This document shows, one piece after another, positions 42 to 36,090 of a stretch of DNA of 64,000 nt. The DNA lies in the IMG/VR virus record IMGVR_UViG_3300032283_001024; one strand, 5' to 3'. The position numbers and the translations under genes are program-made. The stretch comes from an uncultured virus (IMG/VR IMGVR_UViG_3300032283_001024). Lineage: Duplodnaviria > Heunggongvirae > Uroviricota > Caudoviricetes. How positions within the stretch are numbered: position 1 is the first letter of the stretch; each line of letters starts with the position of its first letter. Below the pieces are notes generated by a model. That model had not been told where the DNA came from. It saw only the letters and a program-made list of their open reading frames with translations, and searched no databases.

Positions 42-446
42 TCAGGCAACATTAGGCATGCCAACGCCAAGCTGTGCTCCAAGGTTTTGACCTGCCATAC
101 GTGCTTTACGTGCTTTACGTGCTCTGTTAGCAACGACACCTGCGGCTGCGGCTCCTGCGGCGGCAGTTCCCAAAACTCCTGCACCAACTGATCTTGCAAT
201 TTGAGGATTCATCATTCCAGTTTGGACTCTTTCTGCCATGCCAGGCATGCCGACGCCCCCTAACATACCGTGCGTAGGAGGAACTGCTCCCACGGTACTT
301 ACACCAGAGGGGTCTACATTAAAAATACGGCCTCCAGGAGTTCCTGCAACTGCTCTTCCTGCAGTCATACCAATATTCTCCATAGTTGCTTCCGCATTGG
401 CGCCGATTCGCGAAAGAAACTCAGAAACCTTACCAGCGATGGCCAT
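42..446 (-). CDS. hypothetical Gly/Ala/Met-rich protein (structural module)
   Basis: 134-aa ORF, ATG start, co-oriented with the structural operon. Confidence 0.6.
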   Translation of the reverse strand: MAIAGKVSEFLSRIGANAEATMENIGMTAGRAVAGTPGGRIFNVDPSGVSTVGAVPPTHGMLGGVGMPGMAERVQTGMMNPQIARSVGAGVLGTAAAGAAAAGVVANRARKARKARMAGQNLGAQLGVGMPNVA

Positions 447-3539: not shown

Positions 3540-6215
3540 CTAATATTCCAACTGCAGGTTACCTCTGGTCATAAGTCCATTACAGAGCCACACCAAGGCG
3601 TCGACACAGTCGTCGTGAGAGCTGACGCCAAAGTTGATGATCTCATCAGTCAAGGCTTGGAACTTTCGGTACTTGTTAAACACGATTTTACGTTGTTCAA
3701 ACAAGCCCATAATGCCCCTGAAACGTGCAACCTTGTCGCCACGGAATCCCTTAACCGCATGCCAATTCAAATTGTAAAGACCGTGCTCACCCAGGCAGAT
3801 ACGTTTGAAATCTGCCTCCAAGGATGCTTGGTACGCCACTGCCTCTGACCAGATATCAATGTTGCTTCCACTGGCATGATATTGATCTCCGTCTTTGTGT
3901 ACAATTCCCCACTCGTAGCACATTTCCATCAAAGATTCAAGCTTCTCCAGGTTGCCCATAATCCTGATCCTCTTACAGTCAATAATGTGAATCTTGTTAT
4001 TTACACGCCCGCCAAGGACCATTACGGTGTAGTCGTTTCTTTCTCTAACGCCAGCAGACAAGTCAACGCCAATCCCCAGAGCGTCGAATTCAGTAGAAAT
4101 CTGTCCTCTAACGATCAGATCAGGTGAGAGCGAAAGTTCGCTCGTCTGTACAATTTGATTCTGATACTGAAAACTAAAGCTAATAGGAGCTTGGCGGCGG
4201 CGATCCTGAAGGTATTCAAGCGACCACATCTCTGGCCAGTAAGAAATCTCGTCTCCGTGATCATTAACAATGATTGCGGATTGAACGATTTGAACCCAGT
4301 CATTTGCAGGTGTGAATGTTGTGCTGTGAATGTCGTCATGACGAAATCTTGTGCCCAGGCAGATTGCTCTTCCTCCTTCGAACATTGTTGGAACAATAAC
4401 TGAGTTCCAGTTATCTTCCATCATTTGACGTATATCTTTATTTTTGATGTCGTCAGAACTTTTGATTACATCGTCAAGGATGCAAAGATGTGAACGCTTA
4501 GAAGTCACTGCGCCCTTCAAACCTGCACAACACACAGTAAATTCTTCTTCACCCGTCGACTTAATGCCTGCAAACTTCCAGTCAATGCTCCAGTACTCAT
4601 TGGAGTTGATACCCTTGGCAATTTTCACAGTAGGGAAGATTTCCCTGTAGATCTTGCTTTCTTCGATAATACGTTTGATAGCAGCACTCTTGGGACGAGC
4701 AACATCAACCGTGTAAGAAATGTAGAGGATTTTTAGAGGTTTCTTTGCTACGGCATGATTACCAATTGCCCAAGCAGTATACAAACCAAGAATCGTGCTC
4801 TTTGCACTGTTTTTTGAAACAATGTAGTCTTTAGTTAGAAAGGTGTGTTTTTCGTGGGAGACAGTTATGCACCTTACTTTCTCCAGGGGGGCCGGTTCGA
4901 TCCTGACAATAGATCGACAAGGTAGGTACTTAGTGCAGGGCGTGTATGAGTGCGCTTTACGTTCCAGGTAAAAAGGCTTGATCGCTGCTGGTAACTTGAT
5001 TCCTACTTTCCAAGAAGCGTTTTTAGTCCTTACTTTTTCTCCAGTCGGTCCGCTGTATTGATTGTATTGCGGAGCGTTGATTGTTGCTACGCCGCCTAAA
5101 GACTGCACCAACTCAACTACGTCTAAAACCAATTGGTATGAAATACTGCAAAATGAGATTCCCCCTCCTGTAGGTGACTTGTTGCTCTTAGCTACAGTAC
5201 CATCAGTGTCTAACAAACCCTGCAAAAGTGCAGTTCTGTCAGCAATACAAGCAATCTTGTAGGCTGAAGGGATAAACTTGTCTTTCGACCCTTTCTCTTG
5301 CAGACCAAGATGCCGCAAGGACTCCAGAACTTGGTTAGGTTTACCTTTGCTCCTGCTGCTTTTAACTATGTTGTAGGAATACTTAGATCCTGAAACACTA
5401 ACTAATTCATGGCCAGCAGGTAGAGATTTTCTGCAACGTTCAATAATGTCATTATCGGCTGAAGTGAAACGAACTCCAGATTTCTCGGACAGTCCACCGT
5501 CACCCAGTAATGCTCCTAGCAAATAAGGATCTAGAGGTAGTTTTGATTCAGGGTACTGCACTGGTGCGGTAATCGGAATCTGGTAACGTGCATAACCCCT
5601 TGGGTCTAACCATGGAGTTTCTCCTTCTTCGCAAGTTTCTGTGATCCTTTTTACGCCTGTGCGCCAGTTTCCCTTTGTACCTTTGGTTTTTTGAGTTCTG
5701 AGCTCATTCAAGGTCATTAGGCGCCAGGTATTTTTCGAATCCGTGCCGACTCTTCTTACCTTCCAAAGGTGTTGATCGTCGCAAATAACAGAGGATCCAT
5801 CAGAGAAAATTAGGTTCCATGTTGGGCTTTCTTCGTAATCTTGTATGTCTGTTACTTCAGTTACGCTGCCGTCTTCAGCAAAGACGTGATTTCCTACAGA
5901 AAGTTCACCGATAGCTTGCCACCCTTGCGGAGTAGCTACTGGCATGGACGCCGCCAGTGGTCCCCTAGGAGCGAGGATGTCCATGTTGGGGCCGCCGATC
6001 CCAACCAAGCACTCGGTATCTTGCTCAGTACAAAGGTAGCGGTGCCATTGTTTATGGTGCGCTGCTGGTGGTTTGTCACCCACAACGTCGCAAAAATAGC
6101 CAAAATCTGTTCTTGCGCGATCAATGTCGATCGAGCTTGATTTCTTTACTACTTGTTGTTTCGCCGCAGCTCGCGCTGTCCTACGATAAACCGAGTAGAG
6201 AGATGTGCCTGCCAC
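3540..6215 (-). CDS. terL: terminase large subunit (intein-containing)
   Basis: Walker A APRG|SAKST split by an intein; Walker B LCILDD; GTRFRHDD; nuclease motifs GVDL and HDDCVDA; GTG start. Confidence 0.95.
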   Translation of the reverse strand: MAGTSLYSVYRRTARAAAKQQVVKKSSSIDIDRARTDFGYFCDVVGDKPPAAHHKQWHRYLCTEQDTECLVGIGGPNMDILAPRGPLAASMPVATPQGWQAIGELSVGNHVFAEDGSVTEVTDIQDYEESPTWNLIFSDGSSVICDDQHLWKVRRVGTDSKNTWRLMTLNELRTQKTKGTKGNWRTGVKRITETCEEGETPWLDPRGYARYQIPITAPVQYPESKLPLDPYLLGALLGDGGLSEKSGVRFTSADNDIIERCRKSLPAGHELVSVSGSKYSYNIVKSSRSKGKPNQVLESLRHLGLQEKGSKDKFIPSAYKIACIADRTALLQGLLDTDGTVAKSNKSPTGGGISFCSISYQLVLDVVELVQSLGGVATINAPQYNQYSGPTGEKVRTKNASWKVGIKLPAAIKPFYLERKAHSYTPCTKYLPCRSIVRIEPAPLEKVRCITVSHEKHTFLTKDYIVSKNSAKSTILGLYTAWAIGNHAVAKKPLKILYISYTVDVARPKSAAIKRIIEESKIYREIFPTVKIAKGINSNEYWSIDWKFAGIKSTGEEEFTVCCAGLKGAVTSKRSHLCILDDVIKSSDDIKNKDIRQMMEDNWNSVIVPTMFEGGRAICLGTRFRHDDIHSTTFTPANDWVQIVQSAIIVNDHGDEISYWPEMWSLEYLQDRRRQAPISFSFQYQNQIVQTSELSLSPDLIVRGQISTEFDALGIGVDLSAGVRERNDYTVMVLGGRVNNKIHIIDCKRIRIMGNLEKLESLMEMCYEWGIVHKDGDQYHASGSNIDIWSEAVAYQASLEADFKRICLGEHGLYNLNWHAVKGFRGDKVARFRGIMGLFEQRKIVFNKYRKFQALTDEIINFGVSSHDDCVDALVWLCNGLMTRGNLQLEY
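4809..5960 (-). mobile_element. class 3-type intein with LAGLIDADG homing endonuclease, 384 aa
   Basis: block A PLAASMPVATPQGW, block B CDDQHLW, LAGLIDADG motifs LLGALLGDGG and LLQGLLDTDG, block F VRCITV, C-terminus IVSKN then Ser+1. Confidence 0.93.
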
Positions 6216-12756: not shown

Positions 12757-15700
12757 TCAGAAGAGAGCTAGCTGTTGGGTATTGCTTTGTTCCAGTGCTC
12801 CTCTCAATGCAGATTGCAAACTACGGCCGGTGTGTGTTGCATTCAAAGCATTTACTGTAGCTTGTAATTGTGAAGTTGCTTTGCTCCGATTAAGACGTTG
12901 TCTGGTAGTAGCTGGTCCTGGCATGACCCCAGCTTCCAACTGACGTGGGTAGTAATCAGCAAGCCAATCAGCTTCCGGTACAGCTGCAGGTTTAGAAACG
13001 GGGCGGAACAGTTCGGCAGCAGCCTGCTGCCGCAGAGGAGCTTCAACGGTTTGAGGCTCAGCCTGACTACTGTCAACTACTTGACGCATTTCATCTAGAA
13101 TCTCTTTAAAATTTCCTTGCGGAGCACTTTTTAAGATTTTTTGGCGCCACTGTTTTGTCGCTGGGTCTGCCTTTTCGTTCGTAGAATATGCGGCGTAGGA
13201 ACCAGGAGCAGCGGTTTCTTGAATTTGTTTACGTGCTCGCTCAGCAGCTGCAATTCGCAGTGCTCCTTTAGTTGGGGCCTGCATGGGACCGTACGTTTCC
13301 CTGAAGCGCGTTCCTAGTCCAGGATGTGAACCACCTCCTGCTGGGTACATTGCTTCTTCAGCATAGATAAGGCCTTCAGGTGTAATCCTTTCAGGCTCCA
13401 TTCCTTTAATAATTGAAGCCTCTTCCCCAAAAGACTCAGGATCAATTTGCAAATAGTTAATGCCTGAATAGCTTCTATCGCTTTCGCCTAAGAGCCTAGA
13501 AGGTGTCCTGCTGCTTTCACCCCGCCCAACGCCGCCGACTTGCCTGCTTCCAATAGAAGATGCGCGGCGAATGTTAAGCAATTCTAAAGGAGTAAGGGCT
13601 TTGTTCTCTGGAACTTGAACCATTCCGACTAGTTCACCAGTAAGTTGATTAATAGAAGGAGATAATTTAGTTCCGAGCTGCATTTCTTCAGGAATAGAGT
13701 AAACATACTGATTCTCTTTAGCAGCCTGCAGCGCATTCTGAGCGTTTTGTAAATCCCCATACGAGCGAGAAAGAGCGTTCTTGTCTGCATTGGATAATGC
13801 TGCAAAGTCTGCTGCACGAAGCTGCGTTGTTGCTGGTAAACCTGCCCTTGCAAGTACACCTGCTTTTGTGTTGCTGTGTACAGTTTGCGCCCCCAAGAGA
13901 AGGTTTTCCAGATTTTCTACCTGGGTTAAATCAGAACCTGGGAAAGCTTCAACTGCTTTGAAGGGCCTGAAGAAAGATTTTGTTGGGACCTGTTCTCCAC
14001 CTGGCAGAGTTATGTTGATAGGGACGGCGTTAGACGCAGCAGCATTCAACACACCAGGATCTTGCGTCACGCCATAGAGATCCCAAGCTTTCTTAGAAGC
14101 TGCAGAAAGAGGTGTAGGAGGAAAGAACACATCTGTGTTGCCAGGATCAACAGAACCTCCACGTGTTACAACCCGTGGGTCAATACCGCTGGCCGCTCCC
14201 CACGCTGGGTTGTATCGTTCTCCAGTGGCAAGAGAAGAGTAGGGGCCTTCAGGGTTTACTCCGGTGGCCTCCAACGTTGCAAGTGCGGCTTCTACATCTC
14301 TGGCGCCGGCAATCCGCTGAACAGGGTAAGATCGAGTCGGATCGCTGGCGTAAGTTTCTCCTTCACCTAAAAGCCTCTGTGTCAATGGTGAACGAGACTT
14401 AAAAGTAATTGGCTGTTCTTGTTGTTGTGTATAAGGAACTTCCACAGACTCTGTCTCTCCAGAAGGCCCATTTTTGACAAACAAGTTACCTTTTCCTGTC
14501 AAACTAAACGCCCTTTCTTGGTGTCGAACAGGATTCAAGGCCGCACCGCTGCGTGCTGTCAGCACAGTTGATGGAAAGTGAATAGCTCCAGTTGATGGCT
14601 CTACTCCGTAAAGAGATGCACCTTGTGTTTTCAAGAAACTTTCTACCTTGCCACTTGTAGTTTCTGGTGTTGCAAAAGAAGGATCTAACGCTGCAGTTTG
14701 TTCGGAAACTACTGCAGCCTCAGTAGGGGCAGACAAGAAACTTTCAACGCGCTGCCCAACACTAGGAAAAGCTTCAACGTAACCAGGAACGCTTGTTGCC
14801 GCGTTCCGGATCTCACCAGTGGTGGGATCAACAAGCTGTTCTCCACGAAGATCTGCAAGACGTGCAGCCCTTACTTCAGGAGAGGCGTACTTAGTAGCGA
14901 ACTCAAAACTCTTGCCCTGAGTAGTTCTGGGATCAACAACTGTTGGAGCGTACTCTTCATCCACAGGAATAGGCATGAACCTTCCCCCTTCACCCCTTTG
15001 TTGCACAGGAAGCGGATTTTTTTCTAAAACACTTGCAATTACATCTGCTCTACTGGGACGAGGGCCTGAAGTTTGGCTAGACGCCAGGGACTCGGTTTCG
15101 GTTACTTCTTTTGGAGAATACGACTCACTGGTAGGAGGAAGGTAAAGTTTTCTTTCATCCCCTGCGGGTGCTCCTTTTGCGGCCTGGATTTCTTGCGTTG
15201 CAACATTGACTCTATTCTGGTTGTAGCGTTCAGCTGTAGTTGGCGGAGTCACATCACCAGAATTTACGATCACATCGGCGTCAACATACCTGCCGCCTCC
15301 TAACCCCCTAAGGAAGGACGAAGTGCGCTCACCAATATTTCTGGCGTTTTCCTTTGCAAACGTTCCTGCGTTACTGAGAGCCTGCTGTCCTCCAGGAGTT
15401 TGAGTCAGTGCGTACCCTGCAGCTACTGCGCCAGCACCGAGGGCAACTTTTCCTACCGTGCTCAGCAAAGAATTCTGTTGACGGCGTTCAGCAGCGTTTT
15501 CTTCTTCTTGGTTTTGGAAGTGTTCCGACGTCAAGGTCGAATCCAGGGTTCCGGCTACCTTGGGCGCAGAGTTGTCAGGTGTTACAGGGGAGTTAAAAAG
15601 AGAATTTGGAGCAGAGTTCTGTACGGAAACAGGTTGATCGTACATGATTGTGCCGCCAACACGACCACCTGGAGCGGACGAAGCGGCTTTTCCAACATTT

Positions 15701-15813
15701 TTGACGAATTCGTAAGCATGCGGAGCCGCATCAAACTTTTCTTGGGTCGTTTGAGGATATTTATTGCCGGTTGCACGTGCCCAAAGAGCAAAATCTGCTG
15801 GAGATACGGGCAT
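12757..15813 (-). CDS. large low-complexity protein (1018 aa), putative internal virion protein
   Basis: long ORF; first gene of the minus-strand block. Confidence 0.7.
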   Translation of the reverse strand: MPVSPADFALWARATGNKYPQTTQEKFDAAPHAYEFVKNVGKAASSAPGGRVGGTIMYDQPVSVQNSAPNSLFNSPVTPDNSAPKVAGTLDSTLTSEHFQNQEEENAAERRQQNSLLSTVGKVALGAGAVAAGYALTQTPGGQQALSNAGTFAKENARNIGERTSSFLRGLGGGRYVDADVIVNSGDVTPPTTAERYNQNRVNVATQEIQAAKGAPAGDERKLYLPPTSESYSPKEVTETESLASSQTSGPRPSRADVIASVLEKNPLPVQQRGEGGRFMPIPVDEEYAPTVVDPRTTQGKSFEFATKYASPEVRAARLADLRGEQLVDPTTGEIRNAATSVPGYVEAFPSVGQRVESFLSAPTEAAVVSEQTAALDPSFATPETTSGKVESFLKTQGASLYGVEPSTGAIHFPSTVLTARSGAALNPVRHQERAFSLTGKGNLFVKNGPSGETESVEVPYTQQQEQPITFKSRSPLTQRLLGEGETYASDPTRSYPVQRIAGARDVEAALATLEATGVNPEGPYSSLATGERYNPAWGAASGIDPRVVTRGGSVDPGNTDVFFPPTPLSAASKKAWDLYGVTQDPGVLNAAASNAVPINITLPGGEQVPTKSFFRPFKAVEAFPGSDLTQVENLENLLLGAQTVHSNTKAGVLARAGLPATTQLRAADFAALSNADKNALSRSYGDLQNAQNALQAAKENQYVYSIPEEMQLGTKLSPSINQLTGELVGMVQVPENKALTPLELLNIRRASSIGSRQVGGVGRGESSRTPSRLLGESDRSYSGINYLQIDPESFGEEASIIKGMEPERITPEGLIYAEEAMYPAGGGSHPGLGTRFRETYGPMQAPTKGALRIAAAERARKQIQETAAPGSYAAYSTNEKADPATKQWRQKILKSAPQGNFKEILDEMRQVVDSSQAEPQTVEAPLRQQAAAELFRPVSKPAAVPEADWLADYYPRQLEAGVMPGPATTRQRLNRSKATSQLQATVNALNATHTGRSLQSALRGALEQSNTQQLALF

Positions 15814-16040
15814 TTTGACTTACTTCTTCGATATATTCGATTTTAATCTCTCTCAACACGCTATTTTCCCCTAACTGGCCTAGAAAAAGCCCTTTTTGGG
15901 GTAAAAATTCCGGTAGCAATCAAGCTAACTCAGCTGCCAGAAGGCCCCGAAAGGAAAAAAAGAAAGGGGGCGCCTGCGCTGATGAGTTTGAACAGCCTGC
16001 AGAGGTAGTTCCTCGCGGTTGTGTTCCATCGGTTCAGTCC
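15814..16040. promoter_or_regulatory. divergent intergenic region between late (minus) and early (plus) blocks
   Basis: strand switch, homopolymer tracts, first copy of the 20-bp motif at 15991-16010. Confidence 0.55.
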
Positions 16041-16041
16041 A

Positions 16042-16251
16042 ATGTTCGTCCTTACCTACACCAAGTCCAGCGCCGACGATAAGTGGCACGAGGAAGGTTA
16101 CTTCTCCACCTGGGAAGGTGTGGTCTGCTTCGTTGAGAAGCGCGGAATCACCAACGACCTGCTCAAAGTTGAGTGGGTTCCCGTGGAGATTGTTGATCAG
16201 CCACAGATCTCGTTCTATGACTACAGCAACTGCACAGAAGTGCCGTTCTGA
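16042..16251 (+). CDS. hypothetical early protein
   Basis: ATG 16042; TGA stop abuts the hammerhead. Confidence 0.6.
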   Translation: MFVLTYTKSSADDKWHEEGYFSTWEGVVCFVEKRGITNDLLKVEWVPVEIVDQPQISFYDYSNCTEVPF

Positions 16252-16313
16252 GGCGAAACCGGGGTGCGATCCCCGGTCCAGCAGCTTGACATGCTGCTGC
16301 TGACGAGCCTGTC
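16251..16313 (+). ncRNA. type II hammerhead ribozyme
   Basis: GGC-GAAA-CCGGGG/CCCCGG-UC^-CAGCAGC/GCUGCUG-CUGACGA-GCC; all core nucleotides present, three perfect stems, GUC cleavage triplet ending at 16278. Confidence 0.92.
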
Positions 16314-16328
16314 TTCGTTAGTGCAAGG

Positions 16329-16348
16329 AACAGCCGTAAGAAGCAGTT
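16329..16348 (+). promoter_or_regulatory. AACARCC-N3-AGARGTAGTT motif copy (others at 15991, 16909, 17272, 18222, 19353, 20346)
   Basis: 20-nt motif repeated at least 7 times in early intergenic regions, several inside TGCA..GAAC/GTTCTTTGCA hairpins. Confidence 0.8.
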
Positions 16349-16397
16349 CTTTGTAGTTTTGCCTCCAGCGGAATAGGCCCCGCACCGCTACAGTACC

Positions 16398-16643
16398 ATG
16401 GAATTCACCGCCACCGCCCCTTCTGCTGCCGCTGCTCCTGCTCCCCAGCAACATTTCGTAATCTTCCCTGAGGTTATGCCTCAGGACGACCTCATTGAGG
16501 TTGAGTTCGTTGAGAACAACCCTAATCAAACCCTGGTTAAGGCCCTAGTGGTCGGAACCGGCATCGCAATCGTTGCTGCGTGGTGCAGCCCTACAGGCAA
16601 AAGCCTGCGGAACAAGCTTGCTGAGGCGATTAAAGCCAACTGA
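16398..16643 (+). CDS. hypothetical membrane protein
   Basis: single hydrophobic helix, ATG start. Confidence 0.6.
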   Translation: MEFTATAPSAAAAPAPQQHFVIFPEVMPQDDLIEVEFVENNPNQTLVKALVVGTGIAIVAAWCSPTGKSLRNKLAEAIKAN

Positions 16644-16658
16644 GGCCAAATATAACTG

Positions 16659-16686
16659 GCCGGGTGCAATTCCCGGCTTATTTTTT
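16659..16686 (+). terminator. T-loop hairpin followed by U-tract (intrinsic terminator-like)
   Basis: GCCGGG-TGCAATT-CCCGGC-TTATTTTTT. Confidence 0.6.
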
Positions 16687-16960
16687 ACATTAAAGTGTAA
16701 TTTACGTACAAAAGTGAACACATATGCCCCTTAAAAGCCTTGCGGCAGAAGGGAAGACGTGAGAAAGGCGCCAGATGTCTAGTTGACAGAATTTTTTGGA
16801 ATTCAGCCTGTGGAAAAGTATTTGAGGCAAAATATATCAATTAGATTGAAAATAAGTTTTAAGTGCGCTGTATTAACTGCGTTATGCAATTCCGCAACAC
16901 TCTGTAATAACAACCAGTAGAAGTAGTTCTTTGCATCATTGTCCTCTGAAATTTACTCCA

Positions 16961-17221
16961 ATGTCCACTGTTACCTGCCAATACGTGAACCAGAAGGTAG
17001 AAGGGGACATTCCTTCCCAAGGATCTCTTCGCTGGGCGCTCCTTTGCCCAGCAATACGTGCTGCACGTGGCATTTATCCAGAAACGCTGCTTACTTGCCC
17101 GGTGCGTCCAGAAATGCCGCATCATTATGGGTGCGTTAACGGAATGCGCTCTGAGTATGCCGAAAGGTATGACTCATTCAATGGAGCAGGAAGTTGGTCT
17201 GCTCTTTGTTCTGAGCTGTAG
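16961..17221 (+). CDS. hypothetical early protein
   Basis: ATG ~33 nt downstream of the 20-bp motif. Confidence 0.55.
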   Translation: MSTVTCQYVNQKVEGDIPSQGSLRWALLCPAIRAARGIYPETLLTCPVRPEMPHHYGCVNGMRSEYAERYDSFNGAGSWSALCSEL

Positions 17222-17261
17222 TACTCCGTAAGAAGGGCTAGGTGCAACTCCTAGCCTCAGA
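17210..17261 (+). ncRNA. tRNA top-half-like element
   Basis: TCTGAG/CTCAGA closing stem plus CTAGG-TGCAACT-CCTAG T-arm, followed by TATTGC. Confidence 0.6.
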
Positions 17262-17323
17262 TATTGCAAGGAACAGCCGTTAGAGGTAGTTCTTTGCACC
17301 AATGCACACACCACCCTCGTCAC

Positions 17324-17584
17324 ATGACTGAGACTTCCGTGTACCGCCGCATTCAGCAGCTTAGGCTGCTTGCCAGGAGGGATAGCTCCCTCCGCTCGCC
17401 CCAAGTAGACCAGGACCTGGAACAGTTCAGGCTGCAGTTCATTCAGGCGTTTGAGGCTTGGATGGATGGCATGAAGGAACTGGACTTAACACCCTTCGTT
17501 GTAACAGCTGACAAGATCATCACTAGCAACAAAGAGTTGCTTCGCTGGCTCCATAAGGAGCTGGACAAAGATCTAGATCGCTGA
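17324..17584 (+). CDS. hypothetical early protein
   Basis: ATG after the conserved hairpin leader. Confidence 0.6.
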   Translation: MTETSVYRRIQQLRLLARRDSSLRSPQVDQDLEQFRLQFIQAFEAWMDGMKELDLTPFVVTADKIITSNKELLRWLHKELDKDLDR

Positions 17585-17624
17585 GTCCAGGCGTGATGCT
17601 GGGGGATCGAATCCCCCACTCAGC
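17580..17624 (+). ncRNA. tRNA top-half-like element (7-bp acceptor, 5-bp T-stem, 7-nt T-loop)
   Basis: GCTGAGT/ACTCAGC plus GGGGG-ATCGAAT-CCCCC, followed by TATTGC. Confidence 0.7.
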
Positions 17625-17668
17625 TATTGCCCTCCAGGGATATGGGCACCCTACAACAGGAGAATCCT

Positions 17669-17827
17669 GTGCACCTCAAGACATCTGTAACCGCTCACTT
17701 TACTTTCAGTGAAGAAGAGCTGTCAGACCTTGCTGGCTTACTAGAGACGTCTGATATCACTGTAAACCTCAGCAATTTCCTGACCGATCTGCGCCATGAG
17801 TTGAGGTTACTTCTTCAAGACAAGTAA
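17669..17827 (+). CDS. small hypothetical protein
   Basis: AGGAG SD then GTG. Confidence 0.5.
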   Translation: MHLKTSVTAHFTFSEEELSDLAGLLETSDITVNLSNFLTDLRHELRLLLQDK

Positions 17828-17866
17828 GAAGTAGTTCTTTTCAACATGTCCAATTGCACCTAGACA

Positions 17867-18169
17867 ATGCAAACGCACCACGAAACCAACCCTCTTCCCG
17901 AAGGTTACACTCACGTCGATCGTAAGCTTGTCGGGTGGGATCACCCGAATCTGGTAATCACAAGACTCCGCCTTGTGTCTGACCCAGGATATCCGTGGTG
18001 GGACGTAAGTTACTGCCACGGAGAAGTAAGTGGTCAACCTGTAAGGGTCCTGCTGCCTTTTGATCAGCTACCTAAGAAGAACATGTTTGGTGCCCTCTAC
18101 AAGGAAGCCAAGATGTCAGGTTGCTACATCCGAGGTCTAGAGCCAAGCAACATCAGTACTCTTTGCTGA
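17867..18169 (+). CDS. hypothetical early protein
   Basis: 100-aa ORF, ATG start. Confidence 0.65.
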   Translation: MQTHHETNPLPEGYTHVDRKLVGWDHPNLVITRLRLVSDPGYPWWDVSYCHGEVSGQPVRVLLPFDQLPKKNMFGALYKEAKMSGCYIRGLEPSNISTLC

Positions 18170-18211
18170 GTCCGTCAACACGGCACTGGGAGGTGTAAGT
18201 CCTCCCACAGC
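18165..18211 (+). ncRNA. tRNA top-half-like element
   Basis: GCTGAG/CACAGC, inner CCGT/ACGG hairpin, GGAGG-TGTAAGT-CCTCC T-arm, followed by TATTGC. Confidence 0.6.
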
Positions 18212-18273
18212 TATTGCAGAGAACAGCCGTAAGAGGTAGTTCTTTGCATCAATGTCCCACCGCACCTCTTCAC

Positions 18274-19363
18274 ATGCTCGGACGCACCACTCTACTTCTC
18301 GGCGCTGGTCTAATCGGAGTGTTTACACTCAAGAAAGAGACTAAAGATCGTATCAGAAATAAGGTATCTGCCGGGCTGGTAAAGATGGCTGATGCTGTTA
18401 AGCCCAAGGAAGAAGTAGTTCCTGATCAAAACGAGTTCATTCGGACTCTGTTTCAACTGAATTGATCACCTGTCCTGACTGTCACCATTCCTTCGCTCTT
18501 TCATCATGGAAGTTTTTGTCTACCAGGCGTCTGAACATGATGCGTGGGTAATCACGGTTCGCCGTGACTTCGCTGAGATGCTACGAGTTGATCCTGCTCG
18601 TGGGGTATCCCGATATGAGCGCTACGAAGCGCCAATCGAGAAGATTCGAATTGGGATCGAAACCCTCCGCAAAGAAGGATATACCTTCTGCGGAGCAATC
18701 GATCTCAAGCTTCGGAAATTGATCGAAGCATGAGCAATTTAATTGCAACCGCCACAGCTGTTGTAACAGTTGTTTTGGTTACTACCGCAATCAAGGTAGC
18801 CAGAATCTCCGATAACGGAGAAGTTATAAAAAACTGCAAAGAACTGTATAACATTGTTTATACAGAAGATTTGTTTGGATCGAGAGCACGCTGCATTTCC
18901 AACATGCAGAAGTTTGGTCCAGTGTTCAACCCAACCCGCATGGAGGATTGATGGAAACGTTCCTTGAGAAAGAAGATTTCATCTTTTTAGCAGCGCTTGC
19001 TAAAGAGAACGGAGTTGATTCTTGGCAGTTTGCCAAACAAATCATCAACCAAAGATTGGATGATTACCGAGACGAAATTCGGTATGCCCGGGTTCAAGAA
19101 CAAGAAGATCTTGCAGCTGCTGCAGTTGAAAAGATCGTAGAAGAACAACTCACGAAATCAATCTGATGCTCATCTATAACCCCAAGCAAGATCCCTGTGC
19201 ACGAATCACCTGGTATGGTGGTGACTCCACGATGCTCAGGTTCGAAATCCTGGAAGAATATGGCGACTGGCGTGTAATCAATTCCAAAACTCTTAGTGAG
19301 TTCCCCACTGATGTCAAGGAACTGTACCAAGAGATGCGGAACTACCACGAACAACAACCTTAA
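18274..19363 (+). other. cluster of five small hypothetical CDS (18274-18465, 18506-18733, 18730-18951, 18948-19166, 19166-19363)
   Basis: co-oriented, stop/start overlaps. Confidence 0.6.
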
Positions 19364-19435
19364 GAAGTAGTTCCCTACTTCAGTGGTCAACAGTAGCCTG
19401 ACCTTGGATGCTACCTACACACTTGCCACACCACC

Positions 19436-19858
19436 ATGTCCGCAGCTAACTCAGGCACCGTTGTCGGTACCATCGTGTCCGACATCGCTAGCCGCACTCC
19501 CAGCGACTCTCTGTCTATCACGGAGTTTCGACTCTCCCCTGTGGACGCCAGGGAAGAAGATTCCCCAATCCCTATCACCGCTTACAACAGTGTAGGCCAA
19601 CGAATTACAGAGCGTTACAGCAAAGGCGATACAGTTGTCTTGACGCACCGACTGCGGTATAACACCTGGATGACTCCAGAGGGTGAGCCTCGGGGTCGCA
19701 TGGAGGTGATCGCTACGTCCAGCACTACGGTTCGCCTTGGACAGATCAGCACTGCTAAGCGGGCTGCTGAAGCTGCCCAGCCAGAGGAACCAGCATCAGC
19801 TGCGACAGTCCTTGCGACAGCAACTGCCGTGCCCATGTTGGAAGAAATTCCATTTTGA
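19436..19858 (+). CDS. ssb: single-stranded DNA-binding protein
   Basis: OB-fold SSB pattern (YSKGDTVVLTHRLRYNTW...GEPRGRMEV) and acidic EEIPF tail. Confidence 0.85.
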   Translation: MSAANSGTVVGTIVSDIASRTPSDSLSITEFRLSPVDAREEDSPIPITAYNSVGQRITERYSKGDTVVLTHRLRYNTWMTPEGEPRGRMEVIATSSTTVRLGQISTAKRAAEAAQPEEPASAATVLATATAVPMLEEIPF

Positions 19859-20025
19859 CTTATGTGTTGAAATGCTGACATTACTTTACACAGTTTTTAG
19901 TGCATTGGAATGTTGGCATTTTCTGCATTAGTTATCTATGTAAATTTTGTGTAACTCACCATGAAAATACATCCTATTGAGCTGATACTTGCTATTGTCC
20001 TTGTCGTTTTTGAGGAGTTTGTTTC

Positions 20026-21366
20026 ATGCCTACGACCACAATCATTGCAGAAGACACCAGGAAGCAATTCGAATGCTGGTACGAGCAACATGCAGCGTTT
20101 GAAGAAGAACCAACCATCATCACCGTCCACGAAGTCTGGAAATCTTACGGAGGACCTGAAGAAGGTGGATGGGATTACGAATGTGGATATCCCGTCGAAA
20201 ACGTCTGCATCTTCTCCAAAGAGCAGGCAATCAAAGAACTCCAGAGGCTCCACGACCGCTACCAACCCGAAGCCGAAACGTACGACATCAACCTCAGTCA
20301 AAAGTGGGGTAAGCCTTATCCAGAAAAGCGCCCGCATTATGAGTGAACAGCCACAAGAAGTAGTTATTACAGTTTGTAAGTCAAGTTAGTCTTGACTTGG
20401 TTTTTGGCTACACTGCAAACCTCGACCTAATTGCCATGAGCCTCCTTCCCGAACAACTGCTAATCGCCTCAGCCTTGGGCTACGAGCCAGTGTCAAGTGA
20501 CGAAGCTGATCTGCCTGCGGATCTTAGTTGCTGCAACCTGGAAACCAAGATTGAAGACGGATGGCCTCAGGTCAAGTATCACGGTGAGTGGTATCCTGTG
20601 CCCGCAATGGAAGACGTTGAGGAGTGGGTCTTTGACTCAGTGTGTTTTACTCCAGACGAAGAAGAAGTGGAGCCTGACCACCCGAATTCTTGGCTTTCCA
20701 TCCTTGGATTGATCTGATGAACTACGACGAACTTACTATTTCCGTCGAGCCTTCCGGAGACATAACCGTTACCTGCATGGTTGACGACGTAGTTTACATT
20801 CACGGTAGTCAGACACTGGAGGATCCTCCTGAATACGCCGCAGCCATGTGCGAACTAAAGATTACCAGAGATGAAGTGCTTGATTATCTATACGACAAAG
20901 ATATTAATTTTCCTTACACAGATTGGTTGCCAAAACAAATCCTTAAAGAGGTAGTTTTAAGTTTTGTTGAGTGGAAAGATAAGTGGAAAGTTGCTAACAA
21001 ATAGCCCTAAGCAAAGCTTTAAACTGCTTGTCCAACCCTTTGTCATTCTTTACCATGGAACACACTCAAGTTAACAGGTTCAAAATTACCAGTGAAAAGG
21101 TTGAGATTTCTTTGCAACCTTTTAGTGGTATTGATTCCGCAGCAATTTCTATTGAAGACTCAAACAACAACCGCATTGAGATTCTTAATGTACCTCAAGT
21201 CGAAATTCAAACAGCAATTCAACAGTATTTGTTGCTGCTGAAATACACACCAACTGAAGCAGAAAATTCTGTTTTGTGGCTGCAAAACCTTTCTGATGAA
21301 GTTCAAAGAATTCTGGAGAAATATGAACCAGGATTTCTGGAAAAACACGTACCAACCGACATTTAA
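20026..21366 (+). other. four small acidic hypothetical CDS (20026-20346, 20436-20717, 20717-21004, 21055-21366)
   Basis: co-oriented ORFs with ATG starts. Confidence 0.6.
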
Positions 21367-21402
21367 CAAACGGCTCAACTTTTCAATCCTTTACCAGCTG
21401 CC

Positions 21403-21747
21403 ATGACTGACATTAAAACCAGCCTCAGCACCATTGAAATCAACGGCGTCACTTACGCTCCTGTTAGCGCCGATGGTCCTAACACCCTGCCTTCAGGCAA
21501 CCGCTGCGTGGTTGTTATCGACCGTGGCTGGATCTTCGCTGGTGACACCAGCTACAACGAAACCACTCAAGAATACTACCTAAGCAACGCTACTTGGGTG
21601 TTTCGTTGGGAGTCTGTAGGCTTTGACGGTGTTATCTCTAACCCCAAGCAAAACAAAGTGACCTTGAAAAAAATGGACAAACCCGTGGTTGTTCCTAAAG
21701 GTTCTGTTATTTTTTCGGTTCCTGTAGATGCTAATTGGGGTCTGTGA
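21403..21747 (+). CDS. conserved phage beta-rich protein
   Basis: IEINGVTYAPV...RCVVVIDRGWIFAG, a type often followed by a Gly-repeat gene. Confidence 0.7.
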   Translation: MTDIKTSLSTIEINGVTYAPVSADGPNTLPSGNRCVVVIDRGWIFAGDTSYNETTQEYYLSNATWVFRWESVGFDGVISNPKQNKVTLKKMDKPVVVPKGSVIFSVPVDANWGL

Positions 21748-21992
21748 TGCCAGTTAGCGTTGTCGGGGAGGGTTGCCCCTCCCCATTTATGTCAGTCGGT
21801 TACGGTTTCGGTGACGGTTTCGGTTACGGTTTCGGTGACGGTAACGGTTCCGGTTACGGTTTCGGTAACGGTTTCGGTTACGGTTACGGTAACGGTAACG
21901 GTTACGGTTCCGGTTACTGTTACGGTTACGGTTCCGGTTACTGTTACGGTTACTGTTACGGTTCAATCAGCACAGCAACACGGAGGCGTTAG
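21747..21992 (+). CDS. Gly-X repeat protein
   Basis: TGATG coupling to the upstream gene; (GY/GF/GD/GN/GS)n. Confidence 0.65.
   Translation: MPVSVVGEGCPSPFMSVGYGFGDGFGYGFGDGNGSGYGFGNGFGYGYGNGNGYGSGYCYGYGSGYCYGYCYGSISTATRRR
21798..21963 (+). repeat. 6-nt period microsatellite-like repeat
   Basis: ggttac/ggtttc/ggtgac/ggtaac/ggttcc/tgttac units. Confidence 0.95.
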
Positions 21993-22049
21993 TGTGACAA
22001 ACTTTGTGCCAGTCGGTGACAGTTTAATCAGTGAAACAGCTGAAAAAGC

Positions 22050-22582
22050 GTGATGAGTAAGTTTTTAACTTTTTCTAGTACTAACCCTCCTTTCGTGGTT
22101 AGTGATTTGTCCAAAATTGTCTTAATCAAGAAAGAACTCGAGAAAATTGTCAAACATCAGCAAACTCTTGACATTACAAAAGCTGACATCGGCCTTGATG
22201 ATCTTTTATATGAAGTAATCGGGCTTCTTGATGACTATCTCGATTACGACCCAACTGACGACATTGACCAGTTTCCTGTCACAAGCCACGAAATGTGGCA
22301 AAATGCTCACGAACAACACATTGCTTTGCACTCATGAGTTTTTTCAACAATTACGTAGCCCTCGTGGTTGATGCACGAGGTCGTGATGCAAATGTACTTG
22401 TAAAAGCAACAAACTGGGGCAAAGCAATTGAACAGTTAGAAAACGTAGGTTGTGAAGTAATTGAAAACCAAACTAGTGAATATGATCCTGAAGAATTAGT
22501 TACCACAGAAATGTATGAAGGTCTTGGAATTATTACCCTAGAAGATCTTCTACAATCAACTGATTTTCTGCCTCATCTTTGA
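22050..22582 (+). other. two small hypothetical CDS (22050-22337, 22334-22582)
   Basis: ATGA overlap. Confidence 0.55.
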
Positions 22583-22618
22583 TCCACACGTTCATCACCG
22601 CCACTACCTGATCTAACC

Positions 22619-24433
22619 ATGGAATTCAACCTTCCTCAAGATCTTTCCAAGCATTTGATCTCTTATGATCCGCTGTTGCGCAAAGAAATCAAGAAACAAC
22701 GCAGCGCAAATAGAGTTGATCAGTCCGATAAGCCACGTTACCCGCTGGGTTTGCTCCAGGAGAACTTGTTCCCTGAAGAAGTAGTATCTACCGCCTCGTT
22801 TCGACTTGCTGTTGAAAATATCAACGCGGAATATGCGCCCGAAAGATACCGACGTTACTCCAAAGTAGTCGCAAATAAAGATGAAACTTACGCAATCTTC
22901 TACAACTATCAAAATATATGGGTTGCTGCTTGGCTTCCTCCTGAAGACAACAAAGATCAATACCTTTACGGCTTCTCTTACGCTATTAGGGACACTGCTA
23001 AAAATCTTGAAGCCGTTGAAAGACTGAAAAAACAAACAGGACTGGATCCCAAAGTAGTAGTTGTAAAACGTTCTAACTTCTTGGTGTTCACTAAATTAAT
23101 GACAAAAGAAGATGTTGTACGCATGTACACAGGACACTCTAATTCTTGCTACTTTTGGAAAAGTGTAGATTATTTTACACACAAGCGAGGAAATCAAATT
23201 TCCAGGCTATGTAACCAGTTCACAGAATCTGTAAGAAATACACTTCTAACCTGGGAATCAGCCTACGGAAACATTTTTGACAGGGCAGTTGACAGCGGCT
23301 CTTTTATCAAGTTGTTAAACATGGGTCAGGTAATGCAAAACTTTGACAAAAACTTTACAGATGATTTTCAATGGGTACCGTCTTTTGAAAATTATATTCA
23401 AATCGTAAAGCTTACACAAAACGCTATTCTGAATTCACAGGATAGGCCTTATAGTGTATCTTACGCTTTAGAACCCTATAAAAAGTTCAAAACCATTCCA
23501 ATTTTTGAAAAGCCTTTTTTTAAAAAATGGATTCAGGAACGTTGTGATGAAGTCAGAAACAACATTACTATAGAAGAGAATGATAACAAAGAGTGGGTTA
23601 CGGCTCCTTGGAGGCAGATTTTGAATCTTGCTAATAACATTGACAGCATCATTAATGTCTGGCCTAATTGCCCAATTGATTACTTTCAGACACATGTGAA
23701 CATTTTGTCAAAAATGGAACATATCATGAGTAACATGAGCTCTACATGTGTTGAATGGTTAAACACAAACATGCCTGTGGCTTCTTTCTTCCAATGTCTC
23801 TCAAAACACCATGAGAAAGCTGTGGAGAAAAACGATCATTATGCTATTCGAAGGTTTACTACATGGATGGACACTACGAACATGCTAACCAAGTTGATTG
23901 CAAAAGCACCGGACTCCGTTCCAATTCCTAAGCGTTGGCGTCTAGATGAATTCCACGATTTGATTCAGGCTGAAGCGTGGAAACACACTCACGAGGACAA
24001 AGCGTTGCCTCAAGATCTGTTCCCGAACCCTGTCAAGATTCTTTCAGAAACGTATGTTTTCCAGCCCAATACGGTGAAAAATGTGCTAGGAAACTATGTT
24101 GTCGAGACGACTGGCAAAACCACTTGGACTTTCTTCCAACCTAGCTGCTTGCACCAGCTGGCTGCTTGGGGCCAGGCTGTCCGAAACTGTGTTGGTAATG
24201 CTAGCAGCTACGCTGAAGGTGTGGTGCAAAAGAAACACTTCATTGTACTTGCCATGGTGGACAATAAGCCTAAATTCACCGTTCAACTAGAGGTGAACAA
24301 CGGCGTCATGTCTGTTAGACAGATTGTAGGGATGCACAACAGCGGTCTTACTCCAGATGACAAACAGCAGTACACAAAGATGTTTGGCCAAGCTTTGAAC
24401 AAGCGCAACGAAGAAGTAGCTGCTGTTCAGTAG
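22619..24433 (+). CDS. PcfJ-like domain protein
   Basis: C-terminal LAAWGQAVRNCVG..SY...KFTVQL...QIVGMHN pattern. Confidence 0.75.
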   Translation: MEFNLPQDLSKHLISYDPLLRKEIKKQRSANRVDQSDKPRYPLGLLQENLFPEEVVSTASFRLAVENINAEYAPERYRRYSKVVANKDETYAIFYNYQNIWVAAWLPPEDNKDQYLYGFSYAIRDTAKNLEAVERLKKQTGLDPKVVVVKRSNFLVFTKLMTKEDVVRMYTGHSNSCYFWKSVDYFTHKRGNQISRLCNQFTESVRNTLLTWESAYGNIFDRAVDSGSFIKLLNMGQVMQNFDKNFTDDFQWVPSFENYIQIVKLTQNAILNSQDRPYSVSYALEPYKKFKTIPIFEKPFFKKWIQERCDEVRNNITIEENDNKEWVTAPWRQILNLANNIDSIINVWPNCPIDYFQTHVNILSKMEHIMSNMSSTCVEWLNTNMPVASFFQCLSKHHEKAVEKNDHYAIRRFTTWMDTTNMLTKLIAKAPDSVPIPKRWRLDEFHDLIQAEAWKHTHEDKALPQDLFPNPVKILSETYVFQPNTVKNVLGNYVVETTGKTTWTFFQPSCLHQLAAWGQAVRNCVGNASSYAEGVVQKKHFIVLAMVDNKPKFTVQLEVNNGVMSVRQIVGMHNSGLTPDDKQQYTKMFGQALNKRNEEVAAVQ

Positions 24434-31249: not shown

Positions 31250-31693
31250 ATGTCCATCTTCAGTTTTCAGTCTGTTCAAACATTGAAGCTGTCTGTAGAA
31301 GATAATCCGAACATTGAAATCAAGGAAGATCATCTTTACTTGTCAGCACAAAGAGGTGGAGAATCGATCCTTATTTCAGTTCCAGCAGAAGCAATCCTGC
31401 CTATCACAAGCAGGATTCAGCATACACGTGTAAAAACCCCCTCCAAAGAAGCTGTTAGGAAGGTAGGAAACGTGACAGGTGCGCACTATTCTGTGGGTAG
31501 TGATAACAAGATGGCAAAATTGAACGAAGAAAATGTGCGCGACATTCGTACACTTCTTGGAGATAAGTCTTTTATTAGTAGCTACAAGAATGTCACTCAA
31601 ATGTACAAAGATATTGCTAAAAGTTATAACGTAAGTCCTTGGGCAATTAAAAACGTCCATGAAAACCTAAGCTGGAAGCATGTAAAGATTTGA
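31250..31693 (+). CDS. HTH-type DNA-binding protein
   Basis: AKLNEENVRDIR...IAKSYNVSPWAIKNV..SWKHV, typical of HNH-associated C-terminal domains. Confidence 0.6.
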   Translation: MSIFSFQSVQTLKLSVEDNPNIEIKEDHLYLSAQRGGESILISVPAEAILPITSRIQHTRVKTPSKEAVRKVGNVTGAHYSVGSDNKMAKLNEENVRDIRTLLGDKSFISSYKNVTQMYKDIAKSYNVSPWAIKNVHENLSWKHVKI

Positions 31694-32082
31694 GTGCGGT
31701 TATGACAGCCAGTAACTTAGGTGAACTTATGAACACTTACGAGGTTTGTGTTGCTCTTGGTGACGGTAAGCCAATTAGGCGTACTATTCAGGCTTCTACA
31801 GGATTAATGGCTACTGTGCAGGCATTTAACCTGCACCCTACTGCCAGAGTTGTTCATCTTCTCAGAAGAAAGAACAAAGTCAAAACTACCTTAATTGAGG
31901 AGCCAAAAAAAGTTACTCTTAGTTTTGGTGATCCTCCAGGTAAAAGCACAACTCGAGACTTGCTTCTGCCTGAGGCTGTGCGTCTTCGGGTTAAAGGTTG
32001 GTCTTACTCTCTTATTGCAAAAGAACTGGGAATCGGAAAGACTACAGTTCGCACATGGCTAACAACAGCAAGCATCTACTGA
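31690..32082 (+). CDS. protein with C-terminal HTH
   Basis: GWSYSLIAKELGIGKTTVRTWL. Confidence 0.65.
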   Translation: MSAVMTASNLGELMNTYEVCVALGDGKPIRRTIQASTGLMATVQAFNLHPTARVVHLLRRKNKVKTTLIEEPKKVTLSFGDPPGKSTTRDLLLPEAVRLRVKGWSYSLIAKELGIGKTTVRTWLTTASIY

Positions 32083-35578: not shown

Positions 35579-36090
35579 GCGCTCCCCTGGACATCGTGAT
35601 TCGACCCCTGAATCAAGAAAACCTCTGCGCAGCGCAACGGTTGGTCGATGCAACTTTTCCCCACTACCCGTGGATGAACCGAAGGCTTTTCTTCTCTGTT
35701 TCTGATCCACAATTTCTTTATCGCTGGGCACTCTCAGTCGGTTGGCAAATCACTTCTTTGAGTGACTGGGTAGCTTTGGATGCTGATAATCGGGTTGTCG
35801 GGACTGTGGGAGTTTATACATACCGCAAAGATAACAACGAAGCCTGCTGGCTTTCCTGGTTCTGCGTCGATTCAAGCTTTCGTGGGAATGGTATTGGGAA
35901 AAAACTGCTTCAGTTTGCAATTCAACTAGCCCGTCAGGCCGGGAAAAAATATCTGCGCCTTTACACTTCTACACATCCATCCGAAGCAAACGCTCATGCC
36001 CTGTACTACAAGAAATTATTTAAGATCACAGGAAAGGAGTCAGAGCGCATCTATTTAGAGCTAGACCTATCGAAGGAGGTGCAACCATGA
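35575..36090 (+). CDS. GNAT-family N-acetyltransferase
   Basis: WFCVDSSFRGNGIGKKLL acetyl-CoA motif; NAHALYYKKLF. Confidence 0.85.
   Translation: MSAPLDIVIRPLNQENLCAAQRLVDATFPHYPWMNRRLFFSVSDPQFLYRWALSVGWQITSLSDWVALDADNRVVGTVGVYTYRKDNNEACWLSWFCVDSSFRGNGIGKKLLQFAIQLARQAGKKYLRLYTSTHPSEANAHALYYKKLFKITGKESERIYLELDLSKEVQP

Follow-up and report, generated by a model that had tools for sequence, protein, structure and literature searches.

The DNA examined here, a stretch of 64,000 nucleotides (nt) hereafter called the window, is IMG/VR record IMGVR_UViG_3300032283_001024, from an uncultured freshwater cyanobacterial virus that belongs to the lineage of the Synechococcus phage S-EIV1. A 20-nt element, AACARCC-N3-AGARGTAGTT (motif A), is repeated at the head of its early genes and is a real, conserved and strand-specific early-leader signal. 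Seven full copies, that is, copies with zero or one mismatch to the pattern, are found between 15991 and 20365, all on the plus strand, starting at 15991, 16329, 16909, 17272, 18222, 19353 and 20346. A preliminary description, made from the sequence alone, had listed exactly these seven copies, and the two half copies that it placed at 17817 and 20937 are present as well. Motif A is read here, at about an even chance, as a cis-acting RNA element of the 5' leader that defines or protects the ends of messenger RNAs.

A pattern scan of the window allowing up to three mismatches gave nine matches, while shuffled sequences gave a mean of 0.77 and a maximum of three, none of 100 shuffles reaching nine. 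The 3' half alone (AGARGTAGTT) occurs 11 times, always on the plus strand, for an expectation of 0.30; nine of these occurrences lie within 16001-20947 and the remaining two at 5533 and 24991. Moreover, an nhmmer search of the rebuilt genome of ~82.1 kb returned seven matches with E <= 7e-5, every one on the plus strand within 15989-20368. Since all strong genome-wide profile matches fall in this interval, the distribution of motif A is not random. The preliminary description had also put the full copies about 30-70 nt before a start codon, and the distances from the end of the motif to the assigned start codon are indeed 31, 49, 32, 32, 32, 63 and 70 nt; among the nine copies of the window, five stand 31-33 nt from the ATG. 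Three copies (17817, 19353 and 20346) overlap the stop or the last codons of the preceding open reading frame (ORF).

Relatives were found by pattern scans and by a protein-anchored scan: G002 (67.7 kb, ~65-79% nucleotide identity over aligned segments), the 22-kb contig L068 and the 1.4-kb L082. A profile built from the window copies finds five copies in G002, five in L068 and two in L082, all on the sense strand of early genes; the weakest (G002 8273 and L068 2254) were accepted only for their position before the orthologue of gene 20436-20717. Five leader positions, those of copies 1, 2, 6, 7 and 8, are common to the window phage, G002 and L068, and the proteins that flank them share only 40-75% identity. 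Furthermore, genes present in a single phage (16042-16251, 16961-17221 and 17867-18169) have a motif A copy of their own. In scans of IMG/VR, metagenomes and genomes the motif is known from four related phages only. The IMG/VR pattern scan gave 54 loci, of which three on two contigs (G002 and L068) are relatives and the rest singletons at about the chance rate, and the metagenome pattern scan gave 22 loci with L082 as the single relative. A host repeat or a mimic of a CRISPR repeat was rejected, the genome scan having returned six singletons in unrelated bacteria. No nucleotide match was found among GenBank phages, and S-EIV1 itself is devoid of motif A, its best profile match genome-wide having E = 1.1.

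Sequence core and hairpin of motif A

In a gapless alignment of 21 copies from the window and its relatives, positions A18, A27, A29, A33, G34 and T36 are invariant and A20, C22, C23, G28, T32 and T35 nearly so; the conserved positions include A20, A27, G28, A29 and A33, which are predicted to be unpaired. The universal part of motif A is a sequence core made of a mini-stem of three base pairs (bp; AAC/GUU), an A-A mismatch, a G-U pair, the conserved CC and the loop AGA. The loop measures 6 nt (N3 plus AGA) with C22 and C23 paired and 10 nt without.

The preliminary description had also placed several copies at the tip of a longer stem with shifting G-U wobbles. Such a stem (UGCAAGGAAC/GUUCUUUGCA and variants) is real and does show these shifts, but among the nine folded window copies it appears in the minimum-energy fold of only three, 16329, 17272 and 18222, whose fold z-scores are -1.55, -3.14 and -4.95, respectively. 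The copies with a lower stem (class I) amount to 7 of the 21, and to three of the seven full window copies; besides the three just named they comprise G002 11495 and 10816, L068 5733 and L082 395. Their stem has 13 pairs plus one mismatch. Pairing is found in 92.3% of the class I cells compared with 82.2% after shuffling, nine cells are changed on both sides compared with 4.6, and the covariation score is 0.330 compared with 0.163, each value being reached by 0 of 500 shuffles. Pair 13-40 changes from A-U to C-G, pair 12-41 undergoes a compensatory change from A-U to G-C within a single phage (G002), and the wobbles shift at pairs 14-39 and 15-38. In addition, twelve class I G-U pairs would be A-C mismatches if the opposite strand folded. 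Because of these compensatory changes and G-U pairs, it is the sense strand that folds in class I, and the hairpin is under selection in this subset. An RNA-level hairpin is therefore supported for the long-stem copies, where G-U pairs, compensatory changes and orthologous conservation bear out the RNA structure proposed earlier; no support for it is found over all 21 copies.

Three further possibilities examined by eye, namely a pseudoknot within motif A, pairing of the loop with the leader in the manner of Shine-Dalgarno and anti-Shine-Dalgarno sequences, and a conserved upstream ORF, were dropped as not conserved. A search of window positions 15500-22000 against Rfam 15 (E <= 5) returned only chance matches to microRNAs and small RNAs, away from motif A.

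A pseudoknot in the same leader slot

A second element, motif B, is 26 nt long (GTCCTGAGCATGAC-N-TTAAACTGCT) and reads NNCCURAGCAUGNNN-UUAAAC-UGCUY in its pseudoknot form. Seven copies stand in the early and middle leaders of S-EIV1 (loci L061/L062; 25919, 29169, 30513, 33602, 38809, 39528 and 43012, minus strand), two each occur in G002 and L068, where the same T-rich stretch and a TGTCC box follow, and the window phage has a sole near-intact copy at 21004-21029 (plus strand), 25 nt before the ATG at 21055, with two of three P1 pairs and five of five P2 pairs. The slot occupied by motif B is that of motif A, right after the upstream stop and 22-30 nt ahead of the ATG. At gene 17324-17584, the leader in the window is a class I motif A, while the leader of the S-EIV1 orthologue is motif B. 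The two elements thus agree in slot, strand and distance to the start codon and differ in sequence, in fold (hairpin for A, pseudoknot for B) and in distribution, motif B being very widespread and motif A confined to four related phages.

The fold of motif B is an H-type pseudoknot, in which P1 joins letters 0-2 with 11-13 and P2 joins letters 5-9 with 21-25. In the 12 copies of the lineage, four of the five P2 pairs show two-sided change (0/500 shuffles). In 111 distinct IMG/VR copies, a set in which four P2 pairs are fixed by the search pattern, 93.5% of cells are paired compared with 77.4% after shuffling and 157 two-sided changes are counted compared with 60.5 (0/500 shuffles in both cases); all four P1 pairs covary. 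Among 123 other copies, an A at position 5 faces T in 21 of 30 cases (CTGCT class, 16/20; AGGCT class, 5/10) and never faces C; A-C combinations are avoided, while G-T is accepted 24 times. Motif B is clearly an RNA element.

From the perspective of distribution, two IMG/VR scans gave at least 127 and at least 124 loci, L098-L351 being among the loci with motif B, and a BLAST search with a 32-nt motif B query matched 139 GenBank phage records, many with weak E-values because the query is short. The hosts or types of these phages include Staphylococcus, Vibrio, Mycobacterium, Nostoc, Microcystis, Bacillus and crAss-like phages. In a Staphylococcus phage record motif B lies between two head genes, with a P1 pair swapped; in a Mycobacterium phage it is intergenic, ~180 nt before a tRNA; in a Nostoc phage it stands 3 nt before a tRNA-like gene; and in two IMG/VR loci (L189 and L200) it lies 5-8 nt ahead of tRNA genes. 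Because motif B stands ahead of tRNAs too, it probably works on the transcript and not on translation. In at least 11 IMG/VR loci it is found directly before a gene for a PcfJ-like protein (N-terminus MxFxLP).

No Rfam 15 family matched motif B in 20 loci at E <= 1, nor its copies in S-EIV1 25.5-34 kb; a literature search by its sequence returned only unrelated papers and no published name, and the searchable supplements of PMC10690425 held no match. The Pistol ribozyme has a P1-UUAAA linker and a loop pseudoknot (PMC4604425). Motif B was rejected as a Pistol ribozyme, given that the order of elements differs and that no Rfam match was obtained.

The apparent -10 box of motif B (TAAACT) is part of its fold. 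The leader slot of this lineage consequently holds RNA devices, and a promoter-like look in this slot can mislead. Motif A is read like motif B because of their same position and interchange, and the pseudoknot in the same slot of relatives indirectly supports an RNA-level motif A.

Leaders of the early region

The window contains genes for the terminase large subunit with a LAGLIDADG insertion, a family A DNA polymerase, a primase-helicase, ThyX and virion proteins; a virion protein of 753 amino acids (aa) is 54% identical to its S-EIV1 counterpart, and the gene order is mirrored. The IMG/VR fragment G001 is 99.99% identical to window 36362-64000 and overlaps window 1-123 too. As it overlaps both ends of the window, the genome is taken to be ~82.1 kb long and circularly permuted. 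The virion genes on the minus strand stop at 15813, and from ~16040 small genes, then replication genes, follow on the plus strand; the motif A stretch is the head of this plus-strand early run of small genes. Between them lies the divergent control region (15814-15990), in which the four phages are more alike than in coding sequence; it has a -10-like block, GGGGTAAnAT, 77 nt upstream of motif A copy 1. The blocks ATATATTYGATTTTAA and CCTTTTTGGGGTAAnATTCCGGTAGCAATCA are also found there, together with a hairpin whose loop is 17 nt long and A/G-rich and whose stem differs by phage (GCCCC/GGGGC vs GGCC/GGCC).

All copies described below are on the plus strand. Copy 1 (AACAGCCTGCAGAGGTAGTT; 15991-16010) belongs to the divergent control region, 31 nt upstream of the ATG at 16042, and its orthologues lead the early region in G002, L068 and L082. 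Copy 2 (16322-16355, core 16329-16348), a class I long hairpin, has a lower stem of 10 bp, and its orthologues in G002 and L068, likewise of class I, stand before the homologous gene. Copy 3 (16909-16928) is without a lower stem and heads a gene unique to the window phage, downstream of a terminator at 16658-16690 plus ~220 nt of AT-rich spacer. Copy 4 (17265-17298, core 17272-17291), again a class I long hairpin, heads gene 17324-17584. The half copy at 17817-17836, its 3' half intact, contains the TAA of ORF 17627-17827 and heads gene 17867-18169; it lies in a window-specific block (17627-18210) flanked by two copies of a GC hairpin plus CAGCTATTGC (17599-17630 and 18186-18217). Copy 6 (18215-18248, core 18222-18241), the third class I long hairpin, heads gene 18274-18465 and has orthologues at G002 10816 and L068 4851.

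Copy 7 (19353-19372) overlaps the last codons and the TAA of ORF 19166-19363, 63 nt upstream of an SSB-like gene at 19436-19858, and has more diverged orthologues (G002 9541, L068 3530). This small early gene (140 aa, OB-fold), one of two SSB-family genes on the plus strand (the other at 42364-43155), is common to G002 and L068, and no match to it was found in the first 62 kb of S-EIV1, the part searched; it therefore tracks motif A. Copy 8 (20346-20365) begins at the last base of the TGA of ORF 20026-20346, and its diverged orthologues (G002 8273, L068 2254) lie upstream of a homologous gene. A terminator-like hairpin with a U run (20377-20405) stands 11 nt after this copy; the next gene begins 31 nt later, which leaves no room for a promoter after the hairpin. 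The last half copy (20937-20956) is located within ORF 20717-21004.

A spacer of ~7 nt (CAGCTAT) separates class I copies from a preceding GC hairpin that closes the upstream gene. At 17235-17257, for instance, such a hairpin with a 7-nt loop (GG-TGCAACT-CC) forms the 3' end of the upstream gene and is followed by CAGATAT and then by the motif A hairpin. Further GC hairpins on the plus strand are found at 16262-16279, 16658-16678, 17599-17620 and 18186-18208, and a U run accompanies only the one at 16658. Their 7-nt loops resemble the T-loop of tRNA (GG-TGCAAYT-CC, GG-ATCGAAT-CC, GG-TGTAAGT-CC) and are followed by CAGYTAT. Hairpins of this kind are also present in leaders of S-EIV1 and G002, and one follows a motif B copy (L186). 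In G002 and L082 a U run directly follows the class I hairpin.

Downstream of motif A, a second box, (A/T/G)TG-T(C/T)C, is found 8-10 nt past TAGTT and ~20 nt before the start codon (18252-18258, plus strand, for example; others at 16019, 16938 and 17845). Its NTG (N = A, G or T), read from the alignment and the flanks, is present in 20 of the 21 copies, and TGTCC also occurs 20-35 nt upstream of start codons in genes without motif A. After this box the leader is C/A-rich and has no Shine-Dalgarno sequence. A third leader form follows the GC hairpin at 17620-17650 (plus strand), CAGCTATTGCCC-(loop)-GGGCAC, and leads to a normal GGAG Shine-Dalgarno sequence and a GTG start; in the G002 and L068 leaders of the orthologue of gene 17324 the third form is a hairpin of 5-6 bp with a GCAA loop.

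Some features elsewhere in the genome deserve mention. The terminase large subunit (3540-6215, minus strand, 891 aa) has a LAGLIDADG-type domain at residues ~230-390, an interruption that suggests an intein. About 17 tandem 12-nt units (CGGTTACGGTTT-like) at 21773-21975 (plus strand), within ORF 21760-22053, attract spurious matches to Rfam microRNAs. The PcfJ-like protein of 604 aa (22619-24433, plus strand), encoded at the border of early and replication genes, is kept in S-EIV1 and G002 with 35-37% identity. Positions 34001-36000 of the window reach a GC content of 0.62, compared with ~0.46 around them; this GC-rich island, in which a gene for a GNAT acetyltransferase is found along with ORFs that overlap on the two strands, may have been acquired recently. 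The 18 kb that the window does not cover carry virion, peptidase and tail-type genes on the minus strand.

Readings of motif A and their significance

In the reading favoured here, motif A would be the conserved core of a sense-strand RNA element placed before each separately expressed early gene or small operon, with a universal mini-hairpin and, in a subset, a stem extended to 13 pairs. The lineage would have two or more leader modules that can replace one another, motifs A and B among them. At each punctuation point of the polycistronic early RNA, the message downstream would have its 5' end marked, and probably shielded, by motif A, and the GC hairpin upstream would be left behind as the 3' end of the preceding message; some phage or host protein, or a nuclease, would recognise the conserved unpaired bases. 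The core presumably acts as RNA in all copies, cleavage or protection would be its function, and a factor acting in trans probably exists. In favour of this RNA reading are the enrichment and strand bias of motif A and its confinement to the leaders of early genes, its conservation at orthologous leaders of relatives, the covarying stem of class I, the conservation of bases predicted to be unpaired and the pseudoknot that occupies its slot in relatives; moreover, no RNA polymerase gene was found among the ORFs scanned, and the core misfits a sigma-70 promoter. A comparable arrangement is offered by the RNase III sites of the T7 early region and of the Bacillus phage SP82, which are hairpins with an internal mismatch lying between early cistrons on one strand; an RNase III site consists of a double-stranded stem some two helical turns long, interrupted by an internal loop. 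Processing there leaves the upstream message with a hairpin at its 3' end and gives the downstream message a defined leader, as would be the case with motif A. Unlike the T7 sites, class I is limited to 13 pairs in its stem, and a long stem is missing from the majority of motif A copies.

Several observations weigh against a leader RNA element. Over all 21 copies the 13-pair hairpin is paired in 64.1% of cells compared with 63.5% after shuffling, a level reached by 188 of 500 shuffles. The apical GCC/GGU pairs drawn in the preliminary description are not kept: C22 pairs with position 31 in 12 of 21 copies and C23 with position 30 in 11 of 21, the two C's being conserved without pairing while their partners vary. 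Six of the nine folded window copies have no stable fold of the long-stem kind, and with C22 and C23 conserved unpaired and these six copies unfolded, a promoter-like linear signal is simpler. Even in class I, the number of pairs with two-sided change (3) hardly departs from that of shuffled sequences (2.9; 404/500), and the seven sequences are kin, so that the shuffle test overstates significance. The interchange of motifs A and B is seen at one orthologous gene only. Moreover, no convincing sigma-70-type promoter was found on the plus strand at 15.7-22.7 kb to feed the leaders, and transcription must restart after the terminator at 16658-16690. Lastly, the PeSL (promoter-early stem-loop) cassettes show that a covarying stem-loop can overlap a real promoter (PMC2839356).

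The main rival, possible though rather doubtful, takes motif A for a non-canonical promoter, either by itself or within a PeSL-like cassette of terminator and promoter; the preliminary description had named a phage promoter as an option beside a site for an antiterminator or a translational regulator. The host RNA polymerase, with a phage-supplied or unusual specificity factor, would use TAGTT(C/T) as its -10-like element and recognise AACAGCC...AGA further upstream, roughly between -27 and -13, and the overlapping class I stem would attenuate read-through from upstream. The strongest points for a promoter are the conservation of a contiguous 20-nt signal regardless of pairing and the lack of any other promoter found. 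The copy that follows the strong terminator at 16658, the sense orientation of all copies, the fixed spacing to the ATG in five of the nine window copies, the single copy at the head of each independently acquired gene and the terminator-like U run after the class I hairpin in G002 and L082 fit a promoter too; TAGTTT, which fits TAnnnT, is present in 6 of 21 copies, and the 10 nt past the motif are 68% A+T. Stem-loops of PeSLs, moreover, overlap -35 or -10 boxes and contain G-T pairs (PMC2839356). On the other side, 14 of the 21 copies have C at position -7, no -35 is conserved, transcription of the earliest genes has to rely on the host polymerase in its unmodified form, the hairpin 11 nt after copy 20346 is terminator-like, and the equivalent slot in relatives is the RNA pseudoknot, with its apparent -10 inside the fold. 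A sigma-70 consensus scan of the plus strand at 15700-22700 gave no site, and a relaxed scan gave none at motif A copies, the sole nearby match being the -10-like TACAGT at 20368, after copy 20346. Registers set by eye (TAGTTC, NNTAGT or the TGTCC box as -10) fit no majority of copies, and resemblances to NtcA, LexA, ECF, MotA-box and integron attC sites were dropped for wrong spacing or non-conserved letters. Neither an RNA polymerase nor a sigma family (Pfam, PHROGs) was detected among the ORFs scanned (18, 56, 23 and 61), in scans that missed many ORFs below 150 aa beyond 46 kb and took in only seven ORFs from the 18 kb outside the window; the exception is one sub-threshold Sigma70_r4_2/HTH match in a 130-aa ORF at 31690-32082. 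The encoded polymerase that goes with T7-type promoters is thus absent from the ORFs scanned. The promoters of the N4 virion RNA polymerase are template-strand hairpins with a 5-7-bp stem and a 3-nt loop, read by a giant virion polymerase; motif A resembles them in being a small conserved hairpin ahead of early genes, but it folds on the sense strand, has a loop of 6-10 nt and is accompanied by no giant ORF. In fact, the largest unassigned ORFs encode a 1018-aa low-complexity virion-type protein and the 604-aa PcfJ-like protein, and none exceeds 1018 aa; when both were tested as hidden polymerases, no relatives of solved structure were found, and the ESM Atlas gave only PcfJ-like clusters of unknown function.

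Two other explanations have been considered. Motif A could be a translational operator or enhancer, a quite unlikely reading by which binding of the hairpin, either by a protein of the phage or by the 30S subunit, would control initiation ~20-30 nt downstream on the C/A-rich leader devoid of a Shine-Dalgarno sequence; in T4, RegA and gp32 act on their targets as translational regulators. The fixed distance to the start codon speaks for such an operator, as do the leaders without a Shine-Dalgarno sequence beside motif-less neighbours that have one (GGAG before GTG 17670, GAGGAG before 20026), the start-codon-like NTG 13-14 nt past GARGT in 20 of 21 copies, and the co-conservation with motif A of the OB-fold SSB-like gene. 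However, the resemblance of GAGG to a Shine-Dalgarno sequence is lost in relatives (AGATA, AAAAT), short upstream reading frames vary in frame and length, the interchangeable motif B also precedes tRNA genes, and no RNA-binding domain was detected in early proteins. Still less probable, indeed very unlikely, is the antitermination signal of nut/boxB or put type, for which the preliminary description had drawn a loose analogy with lambda boxB; the nascent hairpin would bring a factor to the polymerase, or itself act on the polymerase, which would then read through the hairpins and terminators behind each early gene. The lambda nut site consists of boxA and of boxB, the latter a short stem with a 5-nt GNRA-like purine loop, bound by N. 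Like it, motif A is a small leader hairpin with conserved unpaired purines, placed between the early promoter region and terminators. Each unit runs from the motif through an ORF to a GC hairpin, an order that suits antitermination, as does copy 1 downstream of the conserved -10-like GGGGTAAnAT, and copy 20346 stands just before a terminator beyond which the genes have no room for a promoter. The analogy nevertheless breaks down: seven full and two half copies are packed in 5 kb, with 7-9 copies per early region where lambda has one site per operon, the loop has 6-10 nt and not the 5-nt GNRA-like form, an A-A mismatch is present, no block is conserved upstream of column 13 in the 21 copies and hence no boxA, some copies overlap coding ends, and class I copies lie immediately downstream, not upstream, of hairpins. 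An N-like arginine-rich protein did not turn up, and no early ORF gave a family match, small proteins of this kind being hard to detect; the sole lead is the R-rich N-terminus of gene 17324-17584, noticed by eye.

Returning to a leader RNA element, motif A belongs to the known theme of repeated early-gene regulatory cassettes, as a new variant. In the T4-type phages RB49 and phi1, each PeSL joins a stem-loop to a sigma-70 promoter ahead of small ORFs of unknown function, and PeSLs drive cassette-wise shuffling (Arbiol et al. 2010, PMC2839356). Motif A likewise joins a stem-loop containing G-T pairs to an expression signal before small ORFs of unknown function, lineage-specific genes each have a copy, and genes are gained and lost between relatives cassette by cassette, as with the window block 17627-18210 between repeats. 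Unlike motif A, which has neither box, the PeSLs possess consensus sigma-70 -35 and -10 boxes, with an upstream region rich in AT, and a Shine-Dalgarno sequence; the most conserved letters of motif A fall at the position of the PeSL spacer; and the promoter and terminator activities of PeSLs were measured, whereas motif A is known from sequence alone. A keyword search of the literature on cyanophage early promoter stem-loops returned nothing relevant, and none of the S-EIV1 papers covered names such a motif.

A wider and unlikely proposal would place motifs A and B together in a class, so far undescribed, of self-contained RNA devices that sit in 5' leaders and punctuate polycistronic transcripts before mRNAs and tRNAs. 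The letters of motif B are near-identical across phages of cyanobacteria, Firmicutes, Actinobacteria and Proteobacteria and crAss-like phages; if the proposal is true, motif B would then need no partner specific to the host and could be, for example, a very small pseudoknot that cleaves itself or blocks nucleases, and motif A would be its lineage-specific replacement with the same role. If motif B is such a general phage device for transcript punctuation, motifs A and B together make that testable, and the interchange with a widespread pseudoknot that matches no Rfam 15 family heightens the importance of motif A. This motif survives while the genes behind it are swapped, and so marks the joints of early gene gain and loss. 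The S-EIV1-type cyanophages are a widespread freshwater and polar lineage with no recognisable polymerase, sigma factor or canonical promoters, and a 20-nt signal found ahead of every early gene that is expressed independently gives the most direct access to the programme of early expression.

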